From Candidatus Gottesmanbacteria bacterium (lineage in GTDB: Bacteria > Patescibacteriota > Microgenomatia > JACOXO01): a stretch of DNA of 64,000 nucleotides. Within the stretch, counting starts at the first letter, position 1; each line of letters begins with the position of its first letter. The notes under the pieces were generated by a model. The model was not told the DNA's origin and made no database searches. It saw only the letters and a program-made list of their open reading frames with translations. Location: NCBI GenBank assembly GCA_016182365.1, contig JACOXO010000014.1, positions 2,294 through 66,293 on the forward strand, written 5' to 3'. Positions 9,383 to 64,000 of this stretch are shown piece after piece. A program made the translations under genes and the position numbers.

Positions 9383-9985
9383 ATGGACAATAATTTTGTG
9401 ATGCAGGGTTATGACAAAGTGGCGGAGAAATATCTTAAGAACAGAGATCAATTTAAGAGCATTAAATATTTAGATATCCTAATAAAAAGACTAAAACCTG
9501 GTGCTAAAATTATTGATCTTGGATGTGGAGTCGGAATTCCACTCGATAGATACCTAATAGACAAAGGATTTAAAGTAACAGGTATTGATATATCCACAAA
9601 ACAAATAGAATTAGCACGTCGAAATTGTCCCCAAGCTACATTTATAGTTAAAGATATGTCACAAATTAAAAATGGAGAATATCAGGTTGATGCCGTGATA
9701 TCTTTTTATGCGATATTTCATATTCAAAGAGAAAGTCATATTGAGATTTTTAAGAAAATAAATAGTTTTTTATCTTTAGGTGGTTTAATATTAATAACCA
9801 TGGGTTCTACGGAGTGGGAAGGTACGGAAACAAATTTTCATGGTACTTCAATGTACTGGAGCCACTACGATTCAAAGAAGAACAGAGAAATAATTGAAAG
9901 ATCTGGTTTCGATATTATTTTAGATGGAATTGATATATCAGGTGGTGAGAGGCATCAAGTTATACTTGCTAGAAAAATAAAATAA
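9383..9985 (+). CDS. Class I SAM-dependent methyltransferase
   Basis: Motif I DLGCGVGIP; 200 aa; substrate unknown. Confidence 0.75.
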   Translation: MDNNFVMQGYDKVAEKYLKNRDQFKSIKYLDILIKRLKPGAKIIDLGCGVGIPLDRYLIDKGFKVTGIDISTKQIELARRNCPQATFIVKDMSQIKNGEYQVDAVISFYAIFHIQRESHIEIFKKINSFLSLGGLILITMGSTEWEGTETNFHGTSMYWSHYDSKKNREIIERSGFDIILDGIDISGGERHQVILARKIK

Positions 9986-14138: not shown

Positions 14139-14188
14139 CACCTCGGAGGAGTCCCCGCCCGAGGCGGGGCCACCGTCCGAGGTGTTTT
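14139..14188 (+). terminator. Long nested GC-rich hairpin followed by TTTTG, between the cupin gene and the SDR epimerase
   Basis: Outer 9-bp stem CACCTCGGA/TCCGAGGTG enclosing inner CCCCGCC-CGA-GGCGGGG; U-run after it; read directly. Confidence 0.5.
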
Positions 14189-42129: not shown

Positions 42130-42171
42130 TCCCGACGTAAAAGTCGGGATCCCGACACAAAGTCGTCGGGA
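42130..42171. repeat. Two tandem hairpins TCCCGAC-N6-GTCGGGA and TCCCGAC-N8-GTCGGGA in the atp operon leader
   Basis: Perfect 7-bp arms, same family as 869-885, 8166-8197 and 8480-8498; followed by an A8 run. Confidence 0.6.
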
Positions 42172-50985: not shown

Positions 50986-51014
50986 TTGACAAGAGGGGGG
51001 CTTGTTGATAATAT
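50986..51014 (+). promoter_or_regulatory. Promoter TTGACA-N17-TAATAT at the head of the pyrG leader
   Basis: Read directly; about 170 nt upstream of the pyrG ATG. Confidence 0.5.
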
Positions 51015-51019
51015 AAAAT

Positions 51020-51169
51020 CCCGAAAGCATAAAGCGATCGGGCTTTTTGTTGCAAGAGTTAACGAGCCGCCAGCCGGCGGAGAGTTTTACTTTTGCAACA
51101 TCCTCCTAAAATCGCACCGTGAGCCGTGTTCGAATGAACTGAAAAGGCGAACGGGAAGATTAGGAGGAT
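51020..51169 (+). promoter_or_regulatory. Structured pyrG leader: 5' hairpin CCCGA-N13-TCGGG+CTTTTT, second hairpin CCGCC-AGCC-GGCGG+T-rich, and a 10-nt anti-SD AUCCUCCUAA exactly complementary to the pyrG RBS UUAGGAGGAU
   Basis: All elements read directly (51020-51048, 51067-51095, 51100-51109 versus 51160-51169). Confidence 0.5.
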
Positions 51170-51182
51170 AACATAAAAACAC

Positions 51183-52913
51183 ATGACAACAAAGTATATT
51201 TTTGTATCGGGTGGAGTAATATCTGGCCTTGGTAAAGGAATTTCTGCTGCCTCTATAGCCTTTCTTCTTAAAAACAGCGGTTTTAGAGTAGTTCCCATAA
51301 AATTCGAAAATTATCTCAATCTTGACGCCGGGATTATAAATCCAATTGAACACGGTGATCCGTTTTTATGCGAGGACGGTACTGAAGCAGACATGGATCT
51401 GGGAACTTATGAGAAATTTTTAGATCAGAATATGACCAGAAAGAACTTTGTCACTATGGGCCTTATTTACAAAACCGTAATTGAAAAAGAAAGGGCATTT
51501 GAATACAAAGGAGAAGATGTTGAGGCAATACCCCATATTACAGATGAAATATTTAGAAGAATTGAGATAGCCAGAAGAGACAATAACGCAGAAATAGTCA
51601 TAGTTGAGTTAGGCGGAACTGCAGGAGAATATCAAAACATTCTGTATTACGAAGCATCTCGTCTTCTTGCACTTAGAAATCCTGGATCAGTAGTGCATGT
51701 TCATGTGTCATACCTTCCCACCCCTCCGCATTTAGGGGAGCCGAAGACAAAACCAACACAGTTATCAGTTAAGTTTTTAAACACCATGGGAATTCAGCCG
51801 GATTTTATTGTTGCTAGAGCCGAAAAACCATTAGATAAGAGAAGAAGAGAAAGGTTTGCCCTGTTTTGTAATTTAAATGCCGACCATATTATTTCAAGCC
51901 CTGACGTATCACATGTTTATGAGGTACCTCTGCAATACTTAGAGCAGGATTTTCATAAAAAAATAATGAAGGCTCTTGGTCTTCCACAAAAATCACCTGA
52001 CCTTTCAAATTGGAAAAAACTGGTTGAGAGGATTAAATCCAAAAAAGACAAAGTTATTGAAATTGCAATTGTCGGCAAGTACTTCAAAACAGGCGAGTAT
52101 CAGCTAAGAGATTCATACGCAGCACTATTTGACGCTTTAGATCATGCTGCTTGGGCAAATAATGTCGCTATACAAACTAGATGGATCGATGCGGAAAAAG
52201 TAGAGTCCGCCGTCGCTAAAGCTATGGCGGATAAAAAAGATTTAAGTTATGCAATTACCGAATTAATCGGTAAACCCGAGGGGATTATTGTTCCTATCGG
52301 TTGGGGTCCAAGAGGTGCAGAGGGGATGATTATGGCTGCAAGTTACGGGCGAAAAAAACAGATTCCCTATTTAGGTTTATGTTATGGAATGCAGCTTGCA
52401 GCAGTTGCCTTTGCCAGAGATATTTTGGGATTACCTAAGGCCAATACTACTGAAAATGCAAAGAATACTCCTGATCCTATTATTCAGCTGATGCCGGCTC
52501 AGAAAGATATTATGAAAAGAAGAGCTTACGGAGGGACGATGAGACTAGGCAGCTGGGATGCCATTGTCAAAAAAGGAACAATAGCGTACACTGCTTATGA
52601 AAAGAATGGTAAATTTATTGACAAGAATAAAGGGTTAACAAGCGAAAGACACAGACATAGATATGAATTTAATGATAAATATGCTCATGATTTTGAGAAA
52701 AACGGTATGACAATTTCTGCCCGATCAGTAGTTGAAAAACTTGCCGAAATAATTGAATTGCCTCGCAATTCCCACCCTTTCTATCTAGGTACCCAGGGTC
52801 ATCCAGAGTATAAATCTAGACCACTAGATCCACACCCTTTATTTATTGAATTTATTGCGGCTTGCAAGGGCAATAAATCCAGCACCTCTGCAGCTAAGGT
52901 GCTGGATAAATAA
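51183..52913 (+). CDS. pyrG: CTP synthase
   Basis: N-terminal synthetase domain (IFVSGGVISGLGKG), C-terminal GATase (GLCYGMQ with catalytic Cys, GTQGHPEY); 576 aa. Confidence 0.95.
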   Translation: MTTKYIFVSGGVISGLGKGISAASIAFLLKNSGFRVVPIKFENYLNLDAGIINPIEHGDPFLCEDGTEADMDLGTYEKFLDQNMTRKNFVTMGLIYKTVIEKERAFEYKGEDVEAIPHITDEIFRRIEIARRDNNAEIVIVELGGTAGEYQNILYYEASRLLALRNPGSVVHVHVSYLPTPPHLGEPKTKPTQLSVKFLNTMGIQPDFIVARAEKPLDKRRRERFALFCNLNADHIISSPDVSHVYEVPLQYLEQDFHKKIMKALGLPQKSPDLSNWKKLVERIKSKKDKVIEIAIVGKYFKTGEYQLRDSYAALFDALDHAAWANNVAIQTRWIDAEKVESAVAKAMADKKDLSYAITELIGKPEGIIVPIGWGPRGAEGMIMAASYGRKKQIPYLGLCYGMQLAAVAFARDILGLPKANTTENAKNTPDPIIQLMPAQKDIMKRRAYGGTMRLGSWDAIVKKGTIAYTAYEKNGKFIDKNKGLTSERHRHRYEFNDKYAHDFEKNGMTISARSVVEKLAEIIELPRNSHPFYLGTQGHPEYKSRPLDPHPLFIEFIAACKGNKSSTSAAKVLDK

Positions 52914-52915
52914 CT

Positions 52916-54421
52916 ATGTTGTACGAAAAGTGCGGTATTGTAGGTATTTATAGTCCTACATTATTTCATATGCTACCACATGCCTTGACTGCAGCTGGAG
53001 GAGTACAGCATAGGGGTCAACAGGGTACAGGTATAGCAATTAAAACCAAAGAAAAAATAATCACCTACAAAAGCAACGGCCTTATTAAGCAGGTTTTTTC
53101 AACCAATATCATCAATAGACTAGATAAGCCAGCAGATTGGGTTTTGGTCCATTGCCGCTATGGCACTTACGGCAACTACGCCCGGGCAAATCTCCAGCCA
53201 TGTATCGTAAAAACAAAAGACAACGACACTCTGGCTGTCATCCACAACGGTGAGTTTGCGGCAACCAACGATTTTATCTCAGTTCTCAAGAATAAAACAA
53301 AAAAAAGACTTAAAAAAGGATTAAGTGATACCTATTTATTTAGTTTAGTTCTGGGTTTATCACAAGGAGTGAATTGGGATGAAAAAATAATAAATTGCCT
53401 AAAAAATGTCAAAGGTGCTTACAGTTTAATTATTGGAGTTAACGGAAGCATTTATCTGGCCAGGGACAAATTTGGCATTAGGCCGTTAATATTTGGGAAA
53501 ATAAAAGATGGGTATCTTGCGGCATCTGAAACGCATGCATTTTCAAAAATCGGCGCAACAGTGACAAGAGAAGTGGGGAAAGGCGAGATTGTAAGAATAG
53601 ATAAAAGAGGTCCGGTTAGCATCCAAAAAGAATCCGGCAGAAAATCTCATTTTTGCGATTTTGAATGGGCATATTTTAGCAGGCCGGAATCTCGCTATCC
53701 AACAACTGGTCAACAGAATAATAAAAAACCATCTGAGTGGTTATCAGTTAGCTTATTTAGGGAAAGAAGTGGTGCAATTTTAGCTAGTGAACATCCCTTT
53801 CCTGAAGCTTCTTTTGTTGTTGGTATTCCTGATTCAGGAATATCTTTGGGTACCGGATACGCAAATACACTAAGACTTCCCTACCGTCAAGCAGTTGTCA
53901 GGGATCATTTTGACAGAAATGGTCAGGACAGGTTATTTATGAGAGATGATGAAATGAGAAAAATCAGCAAAAAAGTACTTGGTAAACTATCACTTATAAT
54001 TGACGCCCGAATCTGGAAAGAGGCAGTTGTAGTCGTTGCCGACGATTCAATTGTCAGAGGTAATGTATCCTCAGAAGTAACCAGAGCAATTTTTTCCATG
54101 GGAGCCAAAGAAGTCCACTGGATAATTGGTTTTCCCGCAATTGCGCACAAATGTCATCTTGGGGTAAGTATCAGAAGCGGGGAGGAGTTAATTGCCACAA
54201 GACATAAGTCAGATCCAGTTAAAATTGCCAAAGAACTTGGAGCAACCAGCATTTACTATATTAGCAATATCGGGTTTATAAAAGCCAGGCTTTTGGGAAA
54301 GAAGTTTGTAAATACTACTGATCCAAAAAAAGCTTTTCTGGAAAATGGTGGATGCGGAGGCTGTATTACCGGATTATATCCAGTTACTCAAGATGGAGTA
54401 GAGTATGAAAAAAGCTCTTAG
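52916..54421 (+). CDS. purF: Amidophosphoribosyltransferase
   Basis: Ntn-hydrolase start MLYEKCGIVGIY (Cys immediately after processed Met region), PRTase domain with DDSIVRGN; 501 aa. Confidence 0.9.
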   Translation: MLYEKCGIVGIYSPTLFHMLPHALTAAGGVQHRGQQGTGIAIKTKEKIITYKSNGLIKQVFSTNIINRLDKPADWVLVHCRYGTYGNYARANLQPCIVKTKDNDTLAVIHNGEFAATNDFISVLKNKTKKRLKKGLSDTYLFSLVLGLSQGVNWDEKIINCLKNVKGAYSLIIGVNGSIYLARDKFGIRPLIFGKIKDGYLAASETHAFSKIGATVTREVGKGEIVRIDKRGPVSIQKESGRKSHFCDFEWAYFSRPESRYPTTGQQNNKKPSEWLSVSLFRERSGAILASEHPFPEASFVVGIPDSGISLGTGYANTLRLPYRQAVVRDHFDRNGQDRLFMRDDEMRKISKKVLGKLSLIIDARIWKEAVVVVADDSIVRGNVSSEVTRAIFSMGAKEVHWIIGFPAIAHKCHLGVSIRSGEELIATRHKSDPVKIAKELGATSIYYISNIGFIKARLLGKKFVNTTDPKKAFLENGGCGGCITGLYPVTQDGVEYEKSS

Positions 54422-56321
54422 ACTGGCAATATTAATATCAGGCAGCGGCACAACAATGGAAGCGATTATTAAAGCTTGTAAATTTGGCAAGCTTAAAGAA
54501 AAAATCGATCCAGTTGTTGTTATATCAAGTAATTCTGCAGCTTTAGGTATTGAAAAAGCAAAGAAACTGGGAATAAAAGTTGAGGTTGTTAAAAATAGGA
54601 AAAATCTTCTAAAGACTTTAAAAAAATACAAACCTGATATTGTTTCTCAAAATGGCTGGCTGCCGCTTACTCCCATAGATGTTATCAGGGCTTATAAAAA
54701 TAGGATTTATAATCAGCACCCTGCTCCTTTAGATCCTAAAAATCATTTACATTTCGGAGGTAAAGGTATGTATGGACTGGCAGTGCATGCGAAAATATTG
54801 GATTTTCAAAAAAGGGCTGGCAGAAATTTTCCAACAGAGGCTACAATCCACAGAGTATCTAAGGAATTTGATACCGGAGAGGTCATTGCACGAAAGCAAG
54901 TACCTGTTTATATGTCTGATACACCAGAGATTCTGGCAAAAAGAGTTTTGCCCATTGAACATAAACTTTTTATCGATTTTCTTGATAGAGAGTACAAAGG
55001 ATTAAATAAAGTACAAACAAGAAAATCAACTCTTATAAAAAAAGGTGAGGAAGAATTTCTATATCCCCATAAAGTTCTAATTCTTGGAACTGGCGGTAGA
55101 GAAGACGCGCTGCGGTGGAAATTAAAACAATCACCATATATTGATAAAGTATATATTTCCAAAGACTTAGAGGTTGATATAAATAATCCCAAAAGCGTTT
55201 TGAAAACCTGTGGCGAATTAGGAATAACTTTTGTTGTTGTAGGGAGTGATGAACCAGCTCAGCATGGAGTAGTTGACTATCTTATAAAAGAAAAAATAGA
55301 GGTATTTGGTCCAACTAAAAAAGCAGCAATTATCGAAGGAAGTAAGGTTTTTTCTGATAAGTTTGTCAAAAGACACAAAATTCCCCATCCTTCCTCAAAA
55401 ACTTTTTCGTCCTATAAGAGTGCTTTAAAGTTTTTAAACAGTGATATTGCTTGGATTAAAAATGGGGTGGTTATAAAAGCAGATGGATTGGCTCTTGGTA
55501 AAGGAGCAGTTGTTTGTGATACAACCTCTAAGGCCAAAGAGGTTCTTAAAAATATAATGGTTGATAAACAATTCGCCAATGCTGGTTCTAAGGTGGTTAT
55601 TCAGCAAAAACTAAAGGGATTTGAGGTCTCAGTTACAGTAATTTCTGATGGTAAAAATTACTTAGTTCTACCATTTACTGAAGATCACAAACAGGCATAC
55701 GACCGTGATTTAGGCCCAAATACAGGCGGAATGGGTGTGGTTGCACCCCATCCCTTGGTAAATAAAAAACTGGCAGATAAAATAATTAAAAAAATAGTTA
55801 AACCAACAATTAACGGACTTAGGAGAGAAGGCAGAGAATTTAAAGGAGTGTTATACCCTGGTCTTATGATAGTTGATGGGAATCCTTATGTATTGGAATA
55901 CAACGCCAGATTCGGCGATCCCGAAACAGAAGCTCTTGTTCCACTAATAGATAATATTGATTTTTTCAAACTACTTCAGTCTGCATCAGCTGGCAGGTTG
56001 ATAAAAACTGGATTGTTGAATGTAAACAAAGCCAGTGTTGTAGTGACTTTGGCCTCAAAAGGCTACCCGGGTTCTTATACTAAAGGTATCACTATTTTTG
56101 GGTTGGATTCTCTCCTTGCCAATGATGTTCATATATTTAAAGCTGGAGTTAAAAAAACAGATAAAGGATATCAGACCTCAGGCGGAAGGGTATTAATGGT
56201 ATGTGTGGTGTCTAATTCCCTGGATAATGCACGCAAAAAAGTGTATAAGTTCATAACGAATAAAGGTGTATATTTTTCCGGTATGGAATATCGAACTGAC
56301 ATAGGAGGGAGGATAAGATGA
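54405..56321 (+). CDS. purN-purD: Bifunctional fusion: GAR formyltransferase (PurN, N-terminal ~200 aa) fused to phosphoribosylamine--glycine ligase (PurD, C-terminal ~430 aa)
   Basis: N-terminal LAILISGSGTTMEAII...YNQHPAPL (PurN motifs); C-terminal KVLILGTGGREDALRWKL and ATP-grasp region (PurD motifs); single 638-aa ORF with no stop between. Confidence 0.8.
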   Translation: MKKALRLAILISGSGTTMEAIIKACKFGKLKEKIDPVVVISSNSAALGIEKAKKLGIKVEVVKNRKNLLKTLKKYKPDIVSQNGWLPLTPIDVIRAYKNRIYNQHPAPLDPKNHLHFGGKGMYGLAVHAKILDFQKRAGRNFPTEATIHRVSKEFDTGEVIARKQVPVYMSDTPEILAKRVLPIEHKLFIDFLDREYKGLNKVQTRKSTLIKKGEEEFLYPHKVLILGTGGREDALRWKLKQSPYIDKVYISKDLEVDINNPKSVLKTCGELGITFVVVGSDEPAQHGVVDYLIKEKIEVFGPTKKAAIIEGSKVFSDKFVKRHKIPHPSSKTFSSYKSALKFLNSDIAWIKNGVVIKADGLALGKGAVVCDTTSKAKEVLKNIMVDKQFANAGSKVVIQQKLKGFEVSVTVISDGKNYLVLPFTEDHKQAYDRDLGPNTGGMGVVAPHPLVNKKLADKIIKKIVKPTINGLRREGREFKGVLYPGLMIVDGNPYVLEYNARFGDPETEALVPLIDNIDFFKLLQSASAGRLIKTGLLNVNKASVVVTLASKGYPGSYTKGITIFGLDSLLANDVHIFKAGVKKTDKGYQTSGGRVLMVCVVSNSLDNARKKVYKFITNKGVYFSGMEYRTDIGGRIR

Positions 56322-59158
56322 TAACCAGAATTGAAATTTCGTCTATCGACTCTGATTTTATAACCGTTTATACAATTGATAAAAAACTCTCTTCACAGCA
56401 AATATCTCAAATTGCTGATATTTTAACAAATCCTGTTAGCCAAAAAGCTAGTATCAATAAACAATCAAAGACAAATAAGTTTTTGTATGCTTATGAAATA
56501 GGTTTTTTGCCTGGAGTAACTGACAATATTGCCAATACCAGCAAAGAAATAATTGAAGATAAGTTAAAAAACAAATTCCGTCCAGGTGAAGGAGTATATA
56601 GTTCAAAATTATTTTTCGCAACTAGTAAACCTGACTCTTCAAAACTAATCAATCCGCTTATTCAAAGAATCCACATTAAATCCAAAAAAGATTATTTAAA
56701 AAATAAAGGGATGGATAAAATTGTCCCCAAAGTCAATCTTTCTGGCAAACTAAAAGTAGATTTAGTTGATTTGAATGTTTCTGATGAGGAGCTAACAGAA
56801 ATTGGAAAGTCGGGAATTAAAGACAAGAATGGTACACGAAGAGGGCCTTTGGCTTTGGATTTGACATATATGAAAACTATTGCCAAATATTTTAAAAAGC
56901 ATAAAAGAAAACCGACAGATGTTGAGTTAGAATCAATAGCTCAGACGTGGTCGGAGCACTGTAAACATACAATATTTGCTGATCCTATTGATGAAATTAA
57001 AGAAGGACTATTTAAAACCTATATTAAGGGAGCCACGGTTAAGATTAATAAACCATTTTGCGTTTCAGTGTTTACAGACAATTCTGGCGCAATTGAATTT
57101 GATAAAGATTATTTAATTACCCACAAAGTTGAGACCCACAACAGCCCTTCAGCTCTGGACCCATTTGGCGGAGCAATTACAGGAATTGTTGGAGTTAACA
57201 GGGATGCTATTGGTTTTGGATTAGGCGCAAAACCAATTGTTAATACCTATGGTTTTTGTTTTGCTCCGCCTGCTTTGGATAAGAAAGTAATTTTGTATAA
57301 AGATAAAAATCTTTCAAATAAAATGCTTCCTCCATTAAAAATTTTGCAAGGTGTTGTTGATGGAGTTAATAGTGGTGGAAACTGTTCAGGTATCCCAACA
57401 ACTCAAGGATTTTTAGTTTTTGATAATAGATTTGCTGGAAAACCATTAGTATTTGTTGGAACCGTGGGGCTTATACCCAAAAATGCTTACCGTAAAAAAG
57501 CGCAAAAAGGAGATTATATTGTAATGGTTGGAGGAAGAGTAGGGCAGGACGGGATTCATGGCGCAACATTTTCCTCAGAAGCTTTAGACTCAGGGAGTCC
57601 GGCAACAGCAGTACAAATCGGTGACCCAATTACTCAGAAAAAATTATCAGACGCGTTAATTAAAGAGGCAAGAAAACTTAATTTATATAACTCAATTACA
57701 GATAATGGTGCTGGGGGACTTTCCTGTAGTGTTGCTGAGATGGCTAAAGAATGCGGCGGTTGTATAGTTGAGTTAGACAAAGTACCTCTTAAATATCCTG
57801 GTCTTGAGCCTTGGAAAATCTGGATATCTGAATCTCAGGAGAGAATGACCTTGGCAGTACCAGCCAAAGAATGGAAAAAGTTTTATAATCTTATGAGAAA
57901 ACGGGGCGTTGAAGCAACAGTAATTGGTGAATTTAACGATTCAGGTAGATGTGTTGTTGATTATAAGGGAAAGCGGGTTATGGATATTGATATGCAGTTT
58001 TTGCATTATGGTCTTCCGAAAAGGCCAATGAAAACAGTTAAGGATGATGTGGTTCTGAAAGAACCAAAACTGGCAAAAGTAAATAATCTTACTAGTGTCC
58101 TTAACAATATGCTATCAAGGTTAAATATCTGCGGTTATGAATTTATTTCCAAACAATATGACCACGAAGTTCAGGCATCCTCGGTTTTAAAACCGCTTGC
58201 AGGCAAAAGGAGAATAAATACTGAAGTTACAGCTGTAAGACCAAGATTAGATTCCAATAAAGCTGTTATTTTGTCTCAAGGGATACTGCCATTTTATAGT
58301 GATATCGATACCTATCATATGGCATCCTCATCAATTGATACGGCAATAAGAAATGTTGTTGCAGCAGGAGGAGATCCCAATACTATTGCTCTTCTTGATA
58401 ATTTTTGCTGGTGCAGTTCCAATGATTCATATAGACTTTATCAGTTAAAGCAGGCTGCAAAGGCCTGCAGCGATTATTCGCTCCTGTATAAAACGCCGTT
58501 TATTTCAGGTAAAGATAGCATGTTTAATGATTTTAAAGGTTATGATAAACAGGGTAAACCGATAAAAATATCAATTCCCCCGACGCTTCTTATATCCTCA
58601 ATCTGCGTTATTGATAATTATTTAAAAGTTGTATCGATAGATGTTAAGTTTCCCGGAGATCTAGTTTATATTCTCGGCGATACTTATAACGAATTAGGCG
58701 CATCAGAATATTTTTCAATGCTGGGATATATTGGCAATTGCGTTCCTAAAATAGATGCGATTAAAAACAGAAAATTATATAACCAGTTTTACAAAGCTGT
58801 AAAAAATAATTTAGTGGCATCAGCTATCAGCGTTGGAAGGGGAGGATTTGGAGTAGCTTTAGCTAAAACAGCAATGTCTGGTAATTTAGGCATGGATATC
58901 TCTTTGGGTAAACTTCCGGGTAAATTTACAAGAGATGAGTTTGCATTATTTTCTGAATCACAAGGAAGGACTATTGCAACAGTTGCACCTCAAAATAAAA
59001 AAATGTTTGAGAAATTATTTAAAGGATTAAGTATTGCGCTTATTGGGAAAGTTACCTCTAATAAAAATATCATAATAAATGTTGGTAAGAAAAAAATTGT
59101 CGATCTGTCTTTACAAACAGCTTTAAAATCATATAAATCCAATTTTAAAAATTTGTGA
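56318..59158 (+). CDS. purL: FGAM synthase PurL with ~180-aa N-terminal extension (possibly PurS-like)
   Basis: WSEHCKHTIF motif appears at about residue 212, versus about residue 35 in small PurL; two PurM-like repeats follow; separate purQ downstream; 946 aa. Confidence 0.8.
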   Translation: MITRIEISSIDSDFITVYTIDKKLSSQQISQIADILTNPVSQKASINKQSKTNKFLYAYEIGFLPGVTDNIANTSKEIIEDKLKNKFRPGEGVYSSKLFFATSKPDSSKLINPLIQRIHIKSKKDYLKNKGMDKIVPKVNLSGKLKVDLVDLNVSDEELTEIGKSGIKDKNGTRRGPLALDLTYMKTIAKYFKKHKRKPTDVELESIAQTWSEHCKHTIFADPIDEIKEGLFKTYIKGATVKINKPFCVSVFTDNSGAIEFDKDYLITHKVETHNSPSALDPFGGAITGIVGVNRDAIGFGLGAKPIVNTYGFCFAPPALDKKVILYKDKNLSNKMLPPLKILQGVVDGVNSGGNCSGIPTTQGFLVFDNRFAGKPLVFVGTVGLIPKNAYRKKAQKGDYIVMVGGRVGQDGIHGATFSSEALDSGSPATAVQIGDPITQKKLSDALIKEARKLNLYNSITDNGAGGLSCSVAEMAKECGGCIVELDKVPLKYPGLEPWKIWISESQERMTLAVPAKEWKKFYNLMRKRGVEATVIGEFNDSGRCVVDYKGKRVMDIDMQFLHYGLPKRPMKTVKDDVVLKEPKLAKVNNLTSVLNNMLSRLNICGYEFISKQYDHEVQASSVLKPLAGKRRINTEVTAVRPRLDSNKAVILSQGILPFYSDIDTYHMASSSIDTAIRNVVAAGGDPNTIALLDNFCWCSSNDSYRLYQLKQAAKACSDYSLLYKTPFISGKDSMFNDFKGYDKQGKPIKISIPPTLLISSICVIDNYLKVVSIDVKFPGDLVYILGDTYNELGASEYFSMLGYIGNCVPKIDAIKNRKLYNQFYKAVKNNLVASAISVGRGGFGVALAKTAMSGNLGMDISLGKLPGKFTRDEFALFSESQGRTIATVAPQNKKMFEKLFKGLSIALIGKVTSNKNIIINVGKKKIVDLSLQTALKSYKSNFKNL

Positions 59159-59928
59159 GAAAGCCAAAGGTTATTGTACTTTCTGGATACGGTTTAAATT
59201 GTGAAGAGGAAACTAAATTTGCTTTTGATATAGCAGGTGCAAAAACTGATATTGTTCACATTAATGATCTTATTGACAAAACATATTCTTTAAAGAATTA
59301 TCAGGTTATCGCAATTCCGGGAGGTTTTTCTTACGGAGACGATACAGGGAGCGGCAATGCCTACGCTCTTAAGTTAAAAAACCATCTCTGGGAAGATATT
59401 TTAAATTTTATAGAAAAAGACACTCTTGTAATTGGGATTTGCAACGGTTTTCAGATTTTAGTAAGACTGGGTATTTTCGCTAATGTTGCACTGACACATA
59501 ACACTAAACCGAGGTATTTAAACAGGTGGGTGGATTTAGAAATAACAAATGATTCTCCATGGCTTAGTCGTATTGATAAGCTTTCTCTCCCAATTGCCCA
59601 CGGAGAGGGTAGATTTTATGCATCAAAACAGGTTTTGGATAAACTAACAACAAAAAAAATGATAGCTTTAGAATATGTTAAAGGCGAAATGTGTCAGTAT
59701 CAAAATTTGCAAGCTAACCCTAATGGTTCAATGAGAAATATTGCCGGAATTACAGATGAGACGGGAAGAATTTTAGGTTTAATGCCCCATCCGGAAAGAG
59801 GTATGTTTTTTAGTCAAAGACCAGATTTTCCCTTGCTTAAAGAAAAATATTTACGGGAAAGAAGAAAACTTCCAGAGACGGTTGATGGAATTAAAATTTT
59901 TCAAAACGCTGTAAACTACTTCAGATAA
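59155..59928 (+). CDS. purQ: FGAM synthase glutaminase subunit PurQ
   Basis: Class I GATase with GICNGFQIL catalytic Cys and HGEGRF His; 257 aa. Confidence 0.9.
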   Translation: MRKPKVIVLSGYGLNCEEETKFAFDIAGAKTDIVHINDLIDKTYSLKNYQVIAIPGGFSYGDDTGSGNAYALKLKNHLWEDILNFIEKDTLVIGICNGFQILVRLGIFANVALTHNTKPRYLNRWVDLEITNDSPWLSRIDKLSLPIAHGEGRFYASKQVLDKLTTKKMIALEYVKGEMCQYQNLQANPNGSMRNIAGITDETGRILGLMPHPERGMFFSQRPDFPLLKEKYLRERRKLPETVDGIKIFQNAVNYFR

Positions 59929-59929
59929 T

Positions 59930-61309
59930 ATGATAGACTTTTCAAATTATCAGTCAGTTTTCTCCTGGAGATATGGGTCCAGTGAAATGCGCAAACTTTT
60001 AAGCCTTGAGCACAGGTTTAAAACCTGGAGAAAAATATGGGTTGGTCTTGCCAAAGCCCAATGGGAGAAGGGGATTATCAAAAAAAGTGAGTATGAAGAT
60101 TTAAAAAAACAGCAGAATAATATTGATTTAGAAAAAATATTTGAAATTGAAAAAATAACAAAACATGACGTTGTTGCAGCAATAAGAGAGTTTGCAGGTA
60201 AGGCAAAAAAAAGTGGAGGAAAAATTCATTTAGGTTTAACTAGCATGGATGTTGTTGATAATGGTGATGTATTAATTGCCAAACAAGCACTTTCAATCAT
60301 TCAGGATAAAATAATCAGTTTATTAAAAGAGTTTAATAAGCAGATTAAAAAATATCATGATTTTGTCTGTATTGGCTTTACCCATCTTCAGCCGGCAGAG
60401 CCAACAACTGTTGGCTATAGAATCAGTTTTTACGCCCAGGATTTACTGATAGATTTAGAGTTTTTAAATTTTATAAAAATTATTTATAAAGGTAAGGGAA
60501 TAAAGGGGGCTGTAGGCACTGGCGCTAGTTTTAAAAGATTAACAACTGATTCAATATCACTTGAAAGCAAGGTTATGAAACAGTTGGGGATAGATTCAGT
60601 TGATGTTTCAAGTCAGGTGGTAACTAGAAAATTTGATTTTCTAATATTGACTTTTTTAGCCTCAGTTTCCTCGTCAGTTTCTAAGTTTGCTGAAGATCTT
60701 AGAATTCTCCAATCCCCTACCATAGGGGAGTGGAGTGAGCCTTTTGGGAAAACTCAGGTAGGATCATCAGCCATGCCATTTAAGAAAAATCCAGTAAATA
60801 GTGAGAAAATTTGTTCACTAGCAAGATACGTCGCACAATTACCAAACGTTGTTTTACAAAATGCAACGCTTTCTCATTTAGAAAGGACTCTTGATGATTC
60901 AGCCAATAGAAGGATAGTTGTCCCTGAGTCCTTCCTGGCAGTTGATGAAATTTTAGATACGGCAATTAAAATCGCTTCGGGAATGATTATAAACACAAAA
61001 AATATACAGAAGAATTTAAATACCTATGCTCCGTTTTCAGCTATAGAAATAATTATTGCCGAGGTTGTTAAAAAAGGGGCAGATAGACAAAAGGTGCATG
61101 AGGAAATAAGGGTAATATCCATGCAAGCGTGGGATGCAATAAATCAGGGTAGGGACAATCCAATCAAAATGTTAATTGAAGAGAATAAGTATATAAGGAA
61201 GTATTTAAAAAAGGAGGAGATTAGAAAGCTTAATGATGTAAAGGGGCATATTGGTGATGTTTCAGTTAGATCCTTAAGGATTGCAAATAAAATTGACAAG
61301 TTAACATGA
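59930..61309 (+). CDS. purB: Adenylosuccinate lyase
   Basis: Fumarate-lyase signature GSSAMPFKKNPVNSE; 459 aa. Confidence 0.9.
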   Translation: MIDFSNYQSVFSWRYGSSEMRKLLSLEHRFKTWRKIWVGLAKAQWEKGIIKKSEYEDLKKQQNNIDLEKIFEIEKITKHDVVAAIREFAGKAKKSGGKIHLGLTSMDVVDNGDVLIAKQALSIIQDKIISLLKEFNKQIKKYHDFVCIGFTHLQPAEPTTVGYRISFYAQDLLIDLEFLNFIKIIYKGKGIKGAVGTGASFKRLTTDSISLESKVMKQLGIDSVDVSSQVVTRKFDFLILTFLASVSSSVSKFAEDLRILQSPTIGEWSEPFGKTQVGSSAMPFKKNPVNSEKICSLARYVAQLPNVVLQNATLSHLERTLDDSANRRIVVPESFLAVDEILDTAIKIASGMIINTKNIQKNLNTYAPFSAIEIIIAEVVKKGADRQKVHEEIRVISMQAWDAINQGRDNPIKMLIEENKYIRKYLKKEEIRKLNDVKGHIGDVSVRSLRIANKIDKLT

Positions 61310-62430
61310 AAAAAATTGGAATTGTTGGTGGTGGGCAGCTGGGAAAAATGATCACTCAGGAAGCTAAAAAAATGGGGATGAGTGTGTATGTTATTGACCC
61401 TACAGAAAAATCACCAGCTGGGCAAATAGCTGATTATCAGATTGTTGCAGATTACAAAGATGAAAAGGCAATTAAAAAGTTAGGGTCAATGGTTGACGTT
61501 TTGACATTTGAAATTGAGCTGGCAAATAGCAAAGTTCTGGAAGATTTGCAAAAAAAAGGAGTTTCAGTGCACCCCTCCCCAAAGACTCTGGATATTATTA
61601 AAGATAAGTTAAAGCAAAAACAATTTTTAAGAAAAGCCGGGATTCCTGTTGCTGATTTTGTACAAGTTGAAAGTGAGAAAGATATTTTAAATGTAGTTAA
61701 AAAGTTTAAATATCCAGTTCTTTTAAAAGCCAGGTTTGATGCTTACGACGGTAGAGGAAATGCAGTTATATATAATCAAAGGGATATTAAAAAGGGTTTA
61801 ACAAAGCTGAAAGGGAGAAAATTATATATTGAAAAGTTTGTTCCTTTTAAAAAGGAACTAGCTGTAATGGTTGTCAGAAGCACTAAAGGAGAAATTGCAG
61901 TCTATCCGGTTGTTGAGACGATTCATAGAGATAATATTTGTCATATCGTAAAAGTACCTGCTCCAGTTCCTAGCGAGGTATCTAAAAAAGCGCAAAGACT
62001 CGCACAAAAAACAATGAAATACTTAAGAGGAGCAGGAGTTTTTGGAATTGAAATGTTCTATAGCCAAAAAGGCGAAGTTTTTATAAATGAAATTGCTCCT
62101 CGTGTGCATAACTCCGGACATTATTCAATCGAAGCTTCAATTACTTCTCAATTTGAGCAGCACCTGCGGGCAATTACCGGTCTTCCGTTAGGATCGACCA
62201 AATTAAAAGTTCCAGCCTCAGTTATGATCAATATTTTAGGCAATAGACAGGGAGAGGCAAAAGTAAATGGACTTGAAAAGGCTTTAAAAATTGAAGGAGT
62301 ATCTGTACATATTTATGGAAAAAAAGAAACCCGCCCCGAGCGTAAAATGGGCCATATCACTGTCATTGATGAAACAATCGATAAAGCCTATAAAAAAGCA
62401 ATTGCCGCGAGAAGGTATATATCAATATGA
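61306..62430 (+). CDS. purK: N5-carboxyaminoimidazole ribonucleotide synthase (ATP-grasp)
   Basis: MKKIGIVGGGQLGKM N-terminus and ATP-grasp layout; 374 aa; precedes purE-type mutase at window end. Confidence 0.8.
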   Translation: MKKIGIVGGGQLGKMITQEAKKMGMSVYVIDPTEKSPAGQIADYQIVADYKDEKAIKKLGSMVDVLTFEIELANSKVLEDLQKKGVSVHPSPKTLDIIKDKLKQKQFLRKAGIPVADFVQVESEKDILNVVKKFKYPVLLKARFDAYDGRGNAVIYNQRDIKKGLTKLKGRKLYIEKFVPFKKELAVMVVRSTKGEIAVYPVVETIHRDNICHIVKVPAPVPSEVSKKAQRLAQKTMKYLRGAGVFGIEMFYSQKGEVFINEIAPRVHNSGHYSIEASITSQFEQHLRAITGLPLGSTKLKVPASVMINILGNRQGEAKVNGLEKALKIEGVSVHIYGKKETRPERKMGHITVIDETIDKAYKKAIAARRYISI

Positions 62431-63533
62431 AAAAAAATAAAATTACCTATAAATCTTCTGGTGTTAATTATTCAGTTATAGATCCTCTAAAAATAATCGC
62501 TCAAAAACAAGCTCAAGTGACAGCGAGAAAATTTCAAGAGCCATTTTTGACACCATATGAGAAAAGTAGGGGTGAATCAGCTTACTTGATGGAATATAAA
62601 GACTGTTATATAGCTACAGTAATTGAATGTTTAGGAACTAAAAATCTGATTGCTGAAGAAATGAGAAAAATTACTGGTAAAACGTATTATGACAGTATTG
62701 CTCAAGATGCAGTTGCAATGATAGTTAACGATCTCATAACAACCGGTGCACAACCATTTGTTGTTAATGCCTATTGGTCAGTTGGAAATTCAGATTGGTT
62801 TTCAGATTCAGATAGAATGAAAGACTTAACAAAGGGTTGGGCTGATGCCTGTATGAAATCTGGAGCGGTTTGGGGTGGAGGTGAGACACCAACGCTTTCA
62901 GGTATTAATATGGAAAATACTATTAATTTAGCAGGTAGTGGAGTAGGTATAATTAAACCCAAACAAAAATTGGTTGATGCAGACAATCTTCAAGAGAATG
63001 ATGCAATAATACTTTTAGAAAGCAGCGGTGTTCACGCTAATGGTATAAGTTTGACAAGAAAATTAGCTAAAAAACTTAAAAAAGGTTATAAAACTAAATT
63101 ACCCAGTAATAGAATGTACGGAGAAGCTCTATTAACTCCAACAACTTTATATGTGGAGTGTATAAAAAAACTTTTAGAAATGGTAAAGATACATTATTTA
63201 GTTAATATTACTGGACATGGATTTAAAAAATTAATGAGGGCTAAACCCAAATTTAGTTATATAATTACTTCTCTATCTAAAACTCCAGAAGTCTTTACTT
63301 TTATTCAAAATAATTCCGGTCTTTTAGACAAAGAAATGTATGAAACTTTTAATATGGGAGCTGGATTTGCTGTATATGTTTCTAAAAATGACGTAAAAAA
63401 AGTTATTACTATTGCCAAGTCGTGTAAAATACGAGCATGGGAGGCTGGATTTATAAAATCAGGTAAAAAACAGGTCGAAATAAAACCTAGAAATATTATT
63501 TTTGAGAGTGATTCATTAAAAGTCAGATTATGA
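62427..63533 (+). CDS. purM: AIR synthetase (phosphoribosylformylglycinamidine cyclo-ligase)
   Basis: PurM N-domain motif [17 protein letters not shown] and C-domain; 368 aa. Confidence 0.85.
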
Positions 63534-64000
63534 AAAATAAAAATCCACAAGTTGGGATAATTATGGGATCAGATTCTGATCTTCCTGTAATGCAGGATGC
63601 GGCAAAAGTGCTGGATGAGTTTAATGTTTCTTACGAACTGACAATTGTTTCGGCGCATAGAACACCGCAGCGGATGTTTGAGTACGCAAAAACTGCTCAT
63701 GGCAGGGGAATAAAAGTGATAATTGCTGGTGCAGGTGGAGCTGCTCATTTGCCGGGAATGACTGCTTCACTTACTCCACTTCCTGTTATTGGAGTTCCTA
63801 TAAAAACTTCAATACTATTAGGAGTTGATTCTCTTTATTCAATTGTACAAATGCCAAAAGGAGTGCCTGTTGCCACAGTTGCAATTAATAATGCAACCAA
63901 TGCAGCCCTTCTTGCTGTTAAAATTCTAGCCACATCAGATACAAAAATACTTGAGAATGTTAAAAAGTATCATAGAAAGACGCAGATAGAAGTTGAAAAA
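63530..64000 (+). CDS. purE: N5-CAIR mutase PurE (5' part; continues beyond window)
   Basis: [28 protein letters not shown]...[14 protein letters not shown]; ATG overlaps the purM stop (ATGA); ORF open at window end. Confidence 0.85.

Follow-up and report, generated by a model that had tools for sequence, protein, structure and literature searches.

The leader of a pyrG-purine operon in a Candidatus Gottesmanbacteria bacterium: a conserved, possibly CTP-sensing hairpin followed by a genome-specific insertion

Introduction

Can the leader of a single gene adjust both CTP synthesis and de novo purine synthesis to the nucleotide pools of the cell? This question is raised by a stretch of DNA of 64,000 nucleotides (nt) from a Candidatus Gottesmanbacteria bacterium (contig JACOXO010000014.1), called the window below, in which pyrG, the gene of cytidine triphosphate (CTP) synthase, stands at the head of a row of purine genes and is preceded by a leader with several hairpins. 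Bacteria of the candidate phyla radiation (CPR) have tiny genomes with few recognisable regulators, and most of them are uncultured. To our knowledge, almost nothing is known about metabolic control in these organisms. A strong promoter directly followed by a terminator-shaped hairpin is a signature of attenuation, and an earlier note on this DNA, made from its letters alone, had described the pyrG leader as a classic attenuation and ribosome-binding-site sequestration architecture.

We propose that the leader is built of two layers. The first is a hairpin (H1), conserved in front of pyrG in 10 genomes, which would act as a CTP-sensing attenuator. The second is an insertion found in this genome only, predicted to fold into two static hairpins (H2 and H3). 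We put the probability of this reading at roughly 40%.

Results

Promoter and first hairpin are conserved in front of pyrG

A sigma-70-type promoter occupies positions 50986-51014 of the + strand (window coordinates refer to this strand unless marked otherwise). It comprises the -35 element TTGACA (50986-50991), a 17-nt spacer holding a run of six Gs (50995-51000) and a TG-extended -10 element, TGA-TAATAT (51006-51014), with the hexamer TAATAT at 51009-51014. The promoter, which the earlier note had placed correctly, scored 10/12 in a promoter scan and was also recognised there as TG-extended. The letters on the 3′ side of the -10 box are AAAAUCCCGA. H1 (51020-51049; the hairpin itself 51020-51042) consists of a CCCGA..UCGGG hairpin and a C-U5-G tract, which together have the shape of an intrinsic terminator.

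The locus was compared with 45 related loci (designated by L numbers), of which 12 were from genomes and 19 from metagenomes; the remaining 14 were obtained by exact-protein look-ups of the closest homologues. The promoter was kept in more than 10 relatives, and the layout of -35 element, 17-18-nt spacer and TGn-TAnnAT was found in L033-L036, L038-L041 and L045. The hairpin with its U-run, given earlier as 51020-51048, proved to be conserved as well: together with the promoter it precedes pyrG in 10 genomes (the window, L033, L034, L035, L036, L038, L039, L040, L041 and L045). The relatives carrying it are close ones, with 75-84% amino acid (aa) identity. The class shares a layout in which the -10 box is followed by 5 nt, a CCCG-led hairpin, a tract of U5-U8 and the AUG, in most cases 4-15 nt further on. 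H1 contains no Shine-Dalgarno (SD) sequence, and in the relatives the AUG behind the U-tract also lacks one.

In the 64-kb window H1 is the sole hairpin plus U5 outside coding regions on the + strand. In about 390 kb, searched with a regular expression and a covariance model, the motif occurred only 5′ of pyrG, the covariance model retrieving just the 10 leaders on which it had been trained. H1 is present in L034 and L045 despite a divergent upstream gene, and also in L038 and L040, where rplS instead of pur genes comes after pyrG; therefore it belongs to the promoter and transcript of pyrG. Judged by these arrangements, H1 tracks pyrG rather than the purine genes. A role as mere terminator of the CBS gene upstream was rejected as the sole function, given the divergent neighbours in L034 and L045 and the fixed distance from the -10 box. 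The comparison thus supports H1 and its U-run as a conserved, pyrG-specific leader element, consistent with the attenuation part of the earlier description.

The hairpin begins at the probable transcription start

For comparison between leaders, positions were counted from the -10 hexamer. On this scale CCCG (51020-51023), which is both the beginning of the 5′ arm of H1 and the probable transcription start region, lies at +6 to +9. In all 10 leaders CCCG follows the -10 box after exactly 5 nt, although these differ in their letters (AAAAT, AAAGT, GAAAA, GGAAT, GAAGG, AAAAA and AAAGA). By contrast, CCCGnnAG is identical in all of them. The first C is kept even in L036, L038, L040 and L045, where it is outside the pairing, and in several leaders the AG is inside the loop. 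Every leader of the class therefore has three Cs (+6 to +8) and then a G (+9), which is a C run followed by an alternative G start as in pyrC and pyrD.

More distant relatives (about 60-70% aa identity) have the same promoter type followed, after 5-8 nt, by the pyrG start codon, i.e. their pyrG is leaderless. The sequence is TTGAC.-N17-TAATAT/TATTAT-AAATC-GTG in L001, L003, L013 and L014, and TATAAT-CNCCT-ATG in L006 and L007. The TAATAT-AAAAT-CCCG of the window is homologous to the promoters of these six loci. Their start codons, located at about +6, calibrate the position of the transcription start, and suggest that transcription in the window probably begins at the CCCG region. This coincidence of the 5′ arm of H1 with the probable transcription start had been missed in the earlier note; we judge it to be the most important feature of the locus.

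The predicted stability of H1 depends strongly on the 5′ end of the transcript. In the window the energy was -10.0 kcal/mol for an RNA starting at +6, -2.3 kcal/mol for a start at +9 and -0.6 kcal/mol for a start at +10. For all 10 leaders the predicted values ranged from -6.0 to -11.8 kcal/mol with a start at +6, and from -0.6 to -5.1 kcal/mol with a start at +9. Because the predicted energy collapses from +6 to +9/+10 in every leader, the choice of the initiating nucleotide would decide whether H1 exists.

A two-layer model of pyrG control

In the proposed mechanism, of which we infer the start sites, the termination and the nucleotide response, the first layer would operate through RNA polymerase, which would sense nucleotides at initiation. 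When CTP is plentiful, transcription would start at a C of the CCC run, the transcript would contain the full 5′ arm, and the H1 hairpin with its U-tract would form. Transcription would then halt at about 30 nt, or the nearby SD-less start codon would be blocked. When CTP is scarce, transcription would start at G(+9) or A(+10); the arm would be absent, no hairpin would form and pyrG would be expressed. The logic would be that of start-site switching at Escherichia coli pyrC and pyrD, combined with a terminator as in the pyrG leaders of Firmicutes. A close variant would be CTP-dependent, non-productive stuttering on the CCC run.

In the second layer, the insertion of about 125 nt between U-tract and AUG would form two static, rod-like hairpins, the second of which would lock the SD-like AGGAGG. 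This layer is most likely constitutive, acting as an RNA stabiliser or translation damper, rather than ligand-responsive or another conditional switch. Translation would probably still begin from the A-rich stretch of 13 unpaired nt that leads to the AUG, as would suit a largely SD-less genome.

Two other forms of stuttering were considered and rejected. One was stuttering on the A-run before CCCG, since in most relatives this stretch of 5 nt is of mixed sequence. The other was reiterative transcription of the Bacillus subtilis type: the leader lacks a GGGC start, and its run of six Gs is located in the promoter spacer and is unconserved in L045. On this point the earlier note, which had expected the B. 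subtilis mechanism not to apply, had come to the same view.

That pyrG and its linked purine operon are controlled in this way in a clade of Gottesmanbacteria-like Microgenomates is a tentative extension of the model, which we consider doubtful as it stands. It would mean that, with neither repressor nor aptamer, a CTP-dependent choice between C and G/A starts operates on an invariant CCCG that is the 5′ arm of an intrinsic terminator beginning at +1.

Is the first hairpin a sensor or a constitutive element?

Several observations speak against a sensor. The covariation score of the H1 helix core was 0; the core is invariant and only flanking pairs vary, although the count was partly hampered by 3′ arms that were out of register. 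The pairs, listed by hand, include an outer pair that may be A-U, U-A, G-C or G-U and a sixth pair that is G-C or A-U, and the stem ends and loops vary. With energies of -6 to -12.6 kcal/mol the hairpins are weak, and their loops are large (6-15 nt), so termination at H1 may be inefficient. In L037 the hairpin has no U-tract and is farther from the -10 box, and L042-44 have no leader element of any kind. Starts at G under high GTP (guanosine triphosphate) and low CTP, leading to read-through, would induce the downstream purine genes at high GTP, which is physiologically odd. The U-rich tract behind the hairpin could simply be a ribosome landing site of SD-less messenger RNAs (mRNAs). Lastly, a hairpin followed by U6-7 is located immediately 5′ of the purF start in L033 (5378-5402), L036 (4939-4964) and L042 (4670-4691), and no promoter adjoins it in any of the three; this hairpin might serve as a second attenuator of the nucleotide operon or terminate transcription between its cistrons.

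These points can be assembled into the alternative that survives best, namely that H1 is constitutive: a 5′-terminal hairpin protecting the mRNA from decay that depends on the 5′ end, and/or an insulator from upstream read-through. The U-rich tract would then be an S1-type landing pad for ribosomes on an SD-less mRNA, and CCCG would reflect a preference of the promoter or of the initially transcribed sequence. It would account for the lack of covariation in the core, for the retention of a 5′ hairpin without U-tract in L037 and for the hairpins with U-runs in front of purF. The near absence of SD sequences from the genome, the U-rich, SD-less letters right before the AUG in the relatives, and the frequency of GC-rich CCCG... 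hairpins in the intergenic DNA of the genome also fit it. It would not explain, however, why the U-tract stays joined to the hairpin when insertions shift the AUG by 50-130 nt (window, L036 and L041), and the exact 5-nt spacing together with invariant unpaired bases exceeds what a stabiliser needs. Conservation where no co-directional gene lies upstream (L034, L045) also argues against a constitutive H1, and a strong promoter with a canonical terminator shape immediately behind it is typical of attenuation. We regard a constitutive H1 as possible but on balance doubtful, and retain the CTP-sensing attenuator as the preferred reading of the first layer.

The two downstream hairpins are specific to this genome

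RNAfold resolved the leader into three independent hairpins, H1 (51020-51042), H2 (51049-51099) and H3 (51100-51169). H2 is a rod-like hairpin of 51 nt with the lower stem GUUGCAAGAGU/ACUUUUGCAAC and the tip CCGCC-AGCC-GGCGG (51067-51080). The second GC hairpin with a T-rich tract, which had been described at 51067-51095, is present in the sequence; in the predicted fold the hairpin becomes the tip of H2, and the T-rich tract (51085-51095) is base-paired within H2. H3 is a 70-nt hairpin closed by the anti-SD AUCCUCCUAA (51100-51109), which pairs with the SD-like UUAGGAGGAU (51160-51169). The two segments are exact reverse complements of each other, as had been pointed out before. The A-rich, single-stranded spacer AACAUAAAAACAC (51170-51182) leads to the AUG and ends with AACAC, 5 nt that are also present in L045. 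From the end of the GGAGG core to the pyrG AUG there are 15 nt.

The full leader had a folding energy of -69.1 kcal/mol (z = -7.9), which was matched by none of 200 shuffled sequences, and it is among the top five most structured regions of the + strand in the window. The value for H3 alone was -30.9 kcal/mol (z = -6.5). In the ensemble the SD was 94% paired in H3, and the 13-nt spacer with the AUG was 83% unpaired. An inverted repeat of 10 nt is by itself not rare, as the window contains 44 of this length or longer within 100 nt.

The segment comprising H2 and H3 (51049-51174, about 125 nt) was found in none of the relatives L032-L045, including the nearest, L045. The latter has a CBS protein with 82% aa identity, its pyrG begins with letters that are about 88% identical by our count, and its H1 is near-identical; after H1, L045 has 26 U-rich nt and the shared AACAC-ATG, as against about 125 nt in the window. 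L032 (84% aa identity) has only 19 nt upstream, and these contain no SD. At the same site L036 and L041 carry other, unrelated insertions. The anti-SD, on whose conservation in related genomes the earlier note had made its reading depend, is absent from all relatives. No second copy of H2/H3 was found in the 64-kb window or in the 45 related loci, and phage and plasmid collections gave no match. Two viral contigs that fitted the terminal inverted-repeat pattern of H3 proved to be unrelated head-to-head SDs. On this comparison we regard H2/H3 as DNA that was probably inserted recently and is either tolerated by the leader or active in a constitutive way (RNA stabiliser or translation damper).

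The insertion might also be accidental or selfish, a small element resembling a miniature inverted-repeat transposable element (MITE) or a repetitive extragenic palindrome (REP), or a product of local palindrome formation, tolerated between U-tract and AUG without any regulatory role. Its occurrence in one genome only, the unrelated insertions at the same spot in L036 and L041, and the perfect 10-base-pair terminal inverted repeat of H3, with AAC on either side, agree with such an origin. Its single copy in the window, its absence from phage and plasmid collections and the unrelated nature of the two viral contigs that fit the terminal-repeat pattern weigh against it. By a rough estimate, moreover, the probability that AGGAGG arises by chance in this SD-poor genome is below 1% (25-30 positions × 4^-6 for an upstream region of 25-30 nt). 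A selfish or accidental insertion without regulatory role appears unlikely, and a constitutive one remains the second layer of the model that we prefer.

The least tenable possibility is that the three hairpins form a switchable device. Constrained folding gave no fold that frees the SD, and none of the mutually exclusive terminator/antiterminator or SD-freeing folds that the earlier note had envisaged was obtained: forcing the SD or the anti-SD to be unpaired cost 13-14.5 kcal/mol, and the anti-SD had no other stable partner. A scan of the whole window with Rfam 15 at the gathering score returned four transfer RNAs only. Between 50900 and 51300 there was nothing meaningful at E ≤ 10 (no PyrR site, riboswitch, T-box or known leader), nor was any match obtained in nine related loci at E ≤ 1, so that the recourse to Rfam families suggested earlier yielded no leader family. 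An RNA thermometer was rejected, because in silico H3 was still folded at 70°C. Since there are no alternative structures, no conservation and no Rfam match, a riboswitch-like SD-sequestering or attenuator-type reading of H2/H3 is not supported. Of the architecture proposed earlier, H1 with its U-run is conserved and consistent with attenuation; H2 and the anti-SD/SD hairpin are genome-specific and have no switch fold.

A riboswitch, thermometer or protein-controlled device gating pyrG and the purine genes is therefore very improbable: the very stable, non-random structure with its paired SD, the symmetric purine-rich internal loops seen in the folds of H2 and H3, which could bind a protein or ligand, and the hairpin with a purine-rich 3′ arm 15 nt before the AUG in L041 favour it, but the elements are missing even from L045 despite its near-identical H1, the best SD-free fold is 14 kcal/mol worse, H3 withstands 70°C in silico, no Rfam family appears even at E = 10, and the genome is poor in SDs, with 15 nt separating this one from the AUG.

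The hairpin of L041 (1890-1943) belongs to an independent insertion and has the form CCUUCCGA-N17-UCGGAAGG, its purine-rich 3′ arm ending 15 nt before the AUG; it may be a convergent parallel to H3. The window has a second SD-sequestering hairpin at 14139-14185 (CCACCUCGGAGG...CCGUCCGAGGUG), 5′ of the TTG start (14187) of a gene for an NAD-dependent epimerase. In its 5′ arm it imitates the 16S ribosomal RNA anti-SD; the SD, GAGGUG, makes up the 3′ arm and is separated from the start by 4 nt. The 101 nt around this hairpin had a folding energy of -40.9 kcal/mol (z = -3.4). An open reading frame (ORF) of 19 codons on the + strand extends from TTG at 51050 through H2 to a TAA at 51107-51109, within the anti-SD, and a ribosome terminating there would open H3. 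This upstream ORF was dismissed as not significant and probably due to chance: its start codon is in a stem, it is unconserved, and the chance of an open frame is about 30% by rough estimate.

The leader precedes a pyrG-purine operon

CTP synthase is encoded by pyrG at 51183-52913 (+); the protein of 576 aa has the Pfam domains CTP_synth_N and GATase and matches a protein of Candidatus Gottesmanbacteria at 100% identity. Downstream, at 52916-64000 (+), Pfam identified purF, a purN-purD fusion, purL, purQ, purB, purK, purM and purE, the last of which is cut by the window end. From pyrG to purE the genes follow one another in the same direction and are either separated by 1-2 nt or overlap by 4-17 nt, the gap between pyrG and purF being 2 nt. 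The gene order given in the earlier note was thus borne out by Pfam. Directly 5′ of the leader is a gene for a CBS-pair protein, and atpD-atpC are about 2.5 kb farther upstream.

The pyrG-purF linkage recurs in L033, L034, L036, L041 and L042-44. In relatives the two genes are sometimes separated by a phosphoribosyltransferase gene or by a hairpin with a U-run. As far as the gene orders go, coupling of the CTP synthase gene with purine genes is common to most, but not all, of the close relatives sampled, and it suggests joint expression of CTP synthesis and de novo purine synthesis in the clade.

Some other features of these operons were noted. The purN-purD fusion of the window (54405-56321) encodes 638 aa, and L042 (7062-7677) has a fusion of purD with a PfkB-family kinase domain. 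Neither purC nor purH was encountered in the window. No other 120-nt stretch of the + strand is as structured as positions 57161-57280 (+) within purL, a near-perfect long hairpin with -48.2 kcal/mol (z = -5.5).

Translation starts and other leaders in the window and its relatives

The window has a GC content of 35%. Among its ORFs of at least 120 aa, 4 of 51 have a 5-nt SD core 3-18 nt from the start. Many starts are situated 5-10 nt past a -10-like box, e.g. those at 9383, 31149, 31062 (-) and 42392. The scarcity of SD cores and these start positions suggest that leaderless mRNAs are widespread in the genome. The pyrG gene appears to be leaderless in about 20 distant Microgenomates relatives, for example L001, L003, L006, L007, L013, L014, L019-L021, L023, L027, L028 and L030, and an MPQ(K/N) N-terminal extension of its product is conserved in several of them.

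Two relatives have pyrG leaders of other kinds. In L026 (925-1005; pyrG 48% aa identity) TTGACA-N18-ATAAAG is followed after 7 nt by GGGCCCCUCG...CCGAGGGG-U5GU6, with an energy of -14.8 kcal/mol. This leader, with its GGGC start and C/U-rich terminator arm, has the layout of the B. subtilis pyrG attenuator. The leader of L015 (2824-2890) opens with a leaderless upstream ORF of 7 codons, GTG ATG CCA CTT CGC TAT CAA TAA, which is inside an imperfect hairpin (-20.1 kcal/mol for a 75-nt leader segment) 5′ of the pyrG ATG.

GC-rich hairpins of the form (C)CCCGAC-loop-GTCGGG(G) recur between genes of the window: at 868-887, 42131-42148 and 42151-42171 on the + strand, and at 8196-8167, 8158-8133 and 8497-8481 on the - strand. 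A similar hairpin is found in L037 at about 1270-1290. Most of them have no U-tract, and tandem copies occur; these hairpins might represent a REP-like element or an unusual kind of terminator.

Discussion

If the model is correct, the conserved hairpin would be a first proposed means of regulating nucleotide metabolism in this group of organisms, which are uncultured and poor in regulators. A terminator embedded in the promoter, which reads nucleotide pools via RNA polymerase, would be economical for the small genomes of CPR bacteria. The perfect anti-SD/SD hairpin, which is the more conspicuous structure, has turned out to be an insertion in one genome, and this calls for caution in reading such a hairpin as a conserved, riboswitch-like device.

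With translational riboswitches and RNA thermometers, in which a hairpin sequesters the SD, the leader shares the perfect 10-nt anti-SD/SD pairing of H3. Unlike those switches, H3 matches no aptamer family, has no second fold and is not conserved, and its SD is 15 nt from the AUG; for a thermometer the stem is far too stable.

A further comparison is with the pyrG attenuators of Firmicutes. In B. subtilis and in streptococci the pyrG leader combines a terminator with CTP-sensitive initiation events (PMC7039003; PMC4448216), and the attenuator depends on a GGGC initially transcribed sequence at which CTP-sensitive reiterative transcription takes place (PMC7039003). The leader described here precedes the same gene, has a terminator-like hairpin (termination being predicted) in a short leader right after a strong promoter, and its sensing, too, would occur in the initially transcribed sequence. 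The differences concern the start region, which in the window is CCCG and not GGGC, and the position of the hairpin, as H1 begins at about +1 rather than downstream. In addition, the terminator of the Firmicutes has a C/U-rich 5′ arm that can pair with a poly-G extension of the transcript; the 5′ arm of H1, CCCGA(R)AG, has three pyrimidines only, and the start has no G-run.

The start-site switch of pyrC and pyrD in E. coli and Salmonella offers the other half of the comparison. At a high CTP/GTP ratio transcription of these genes starts at a C 6-7 nt past the Pribnow box, and the 5′ C residues thereby added allow a hairpin to be completed; when the ratio is low, the following G is the start and no hairpin is formed (PMC6524683). 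In the H1 leaders the C residues are likewise located 6-8 nt past the -10 box and are followed by G, and they make up the 5′ end of the hairpin, whose predicted stability falls with a G start. In both cases the target belongs to the pyrimidine pathway and no repressor protein is needed. The hairpin of pyrC and pyrD hides the SD and thus controls translation, whereas H1 has a U-tract and terminator shape, with no SD in its conserved version. For H1, start-site switching is a prediction. The conserved part of the leader would thus be a variant of the known repressor-free, nucleotide-sensing leaders and, if the model is true, a new device that merges the start-site switch of pyrC with the attenuation of pyrG.

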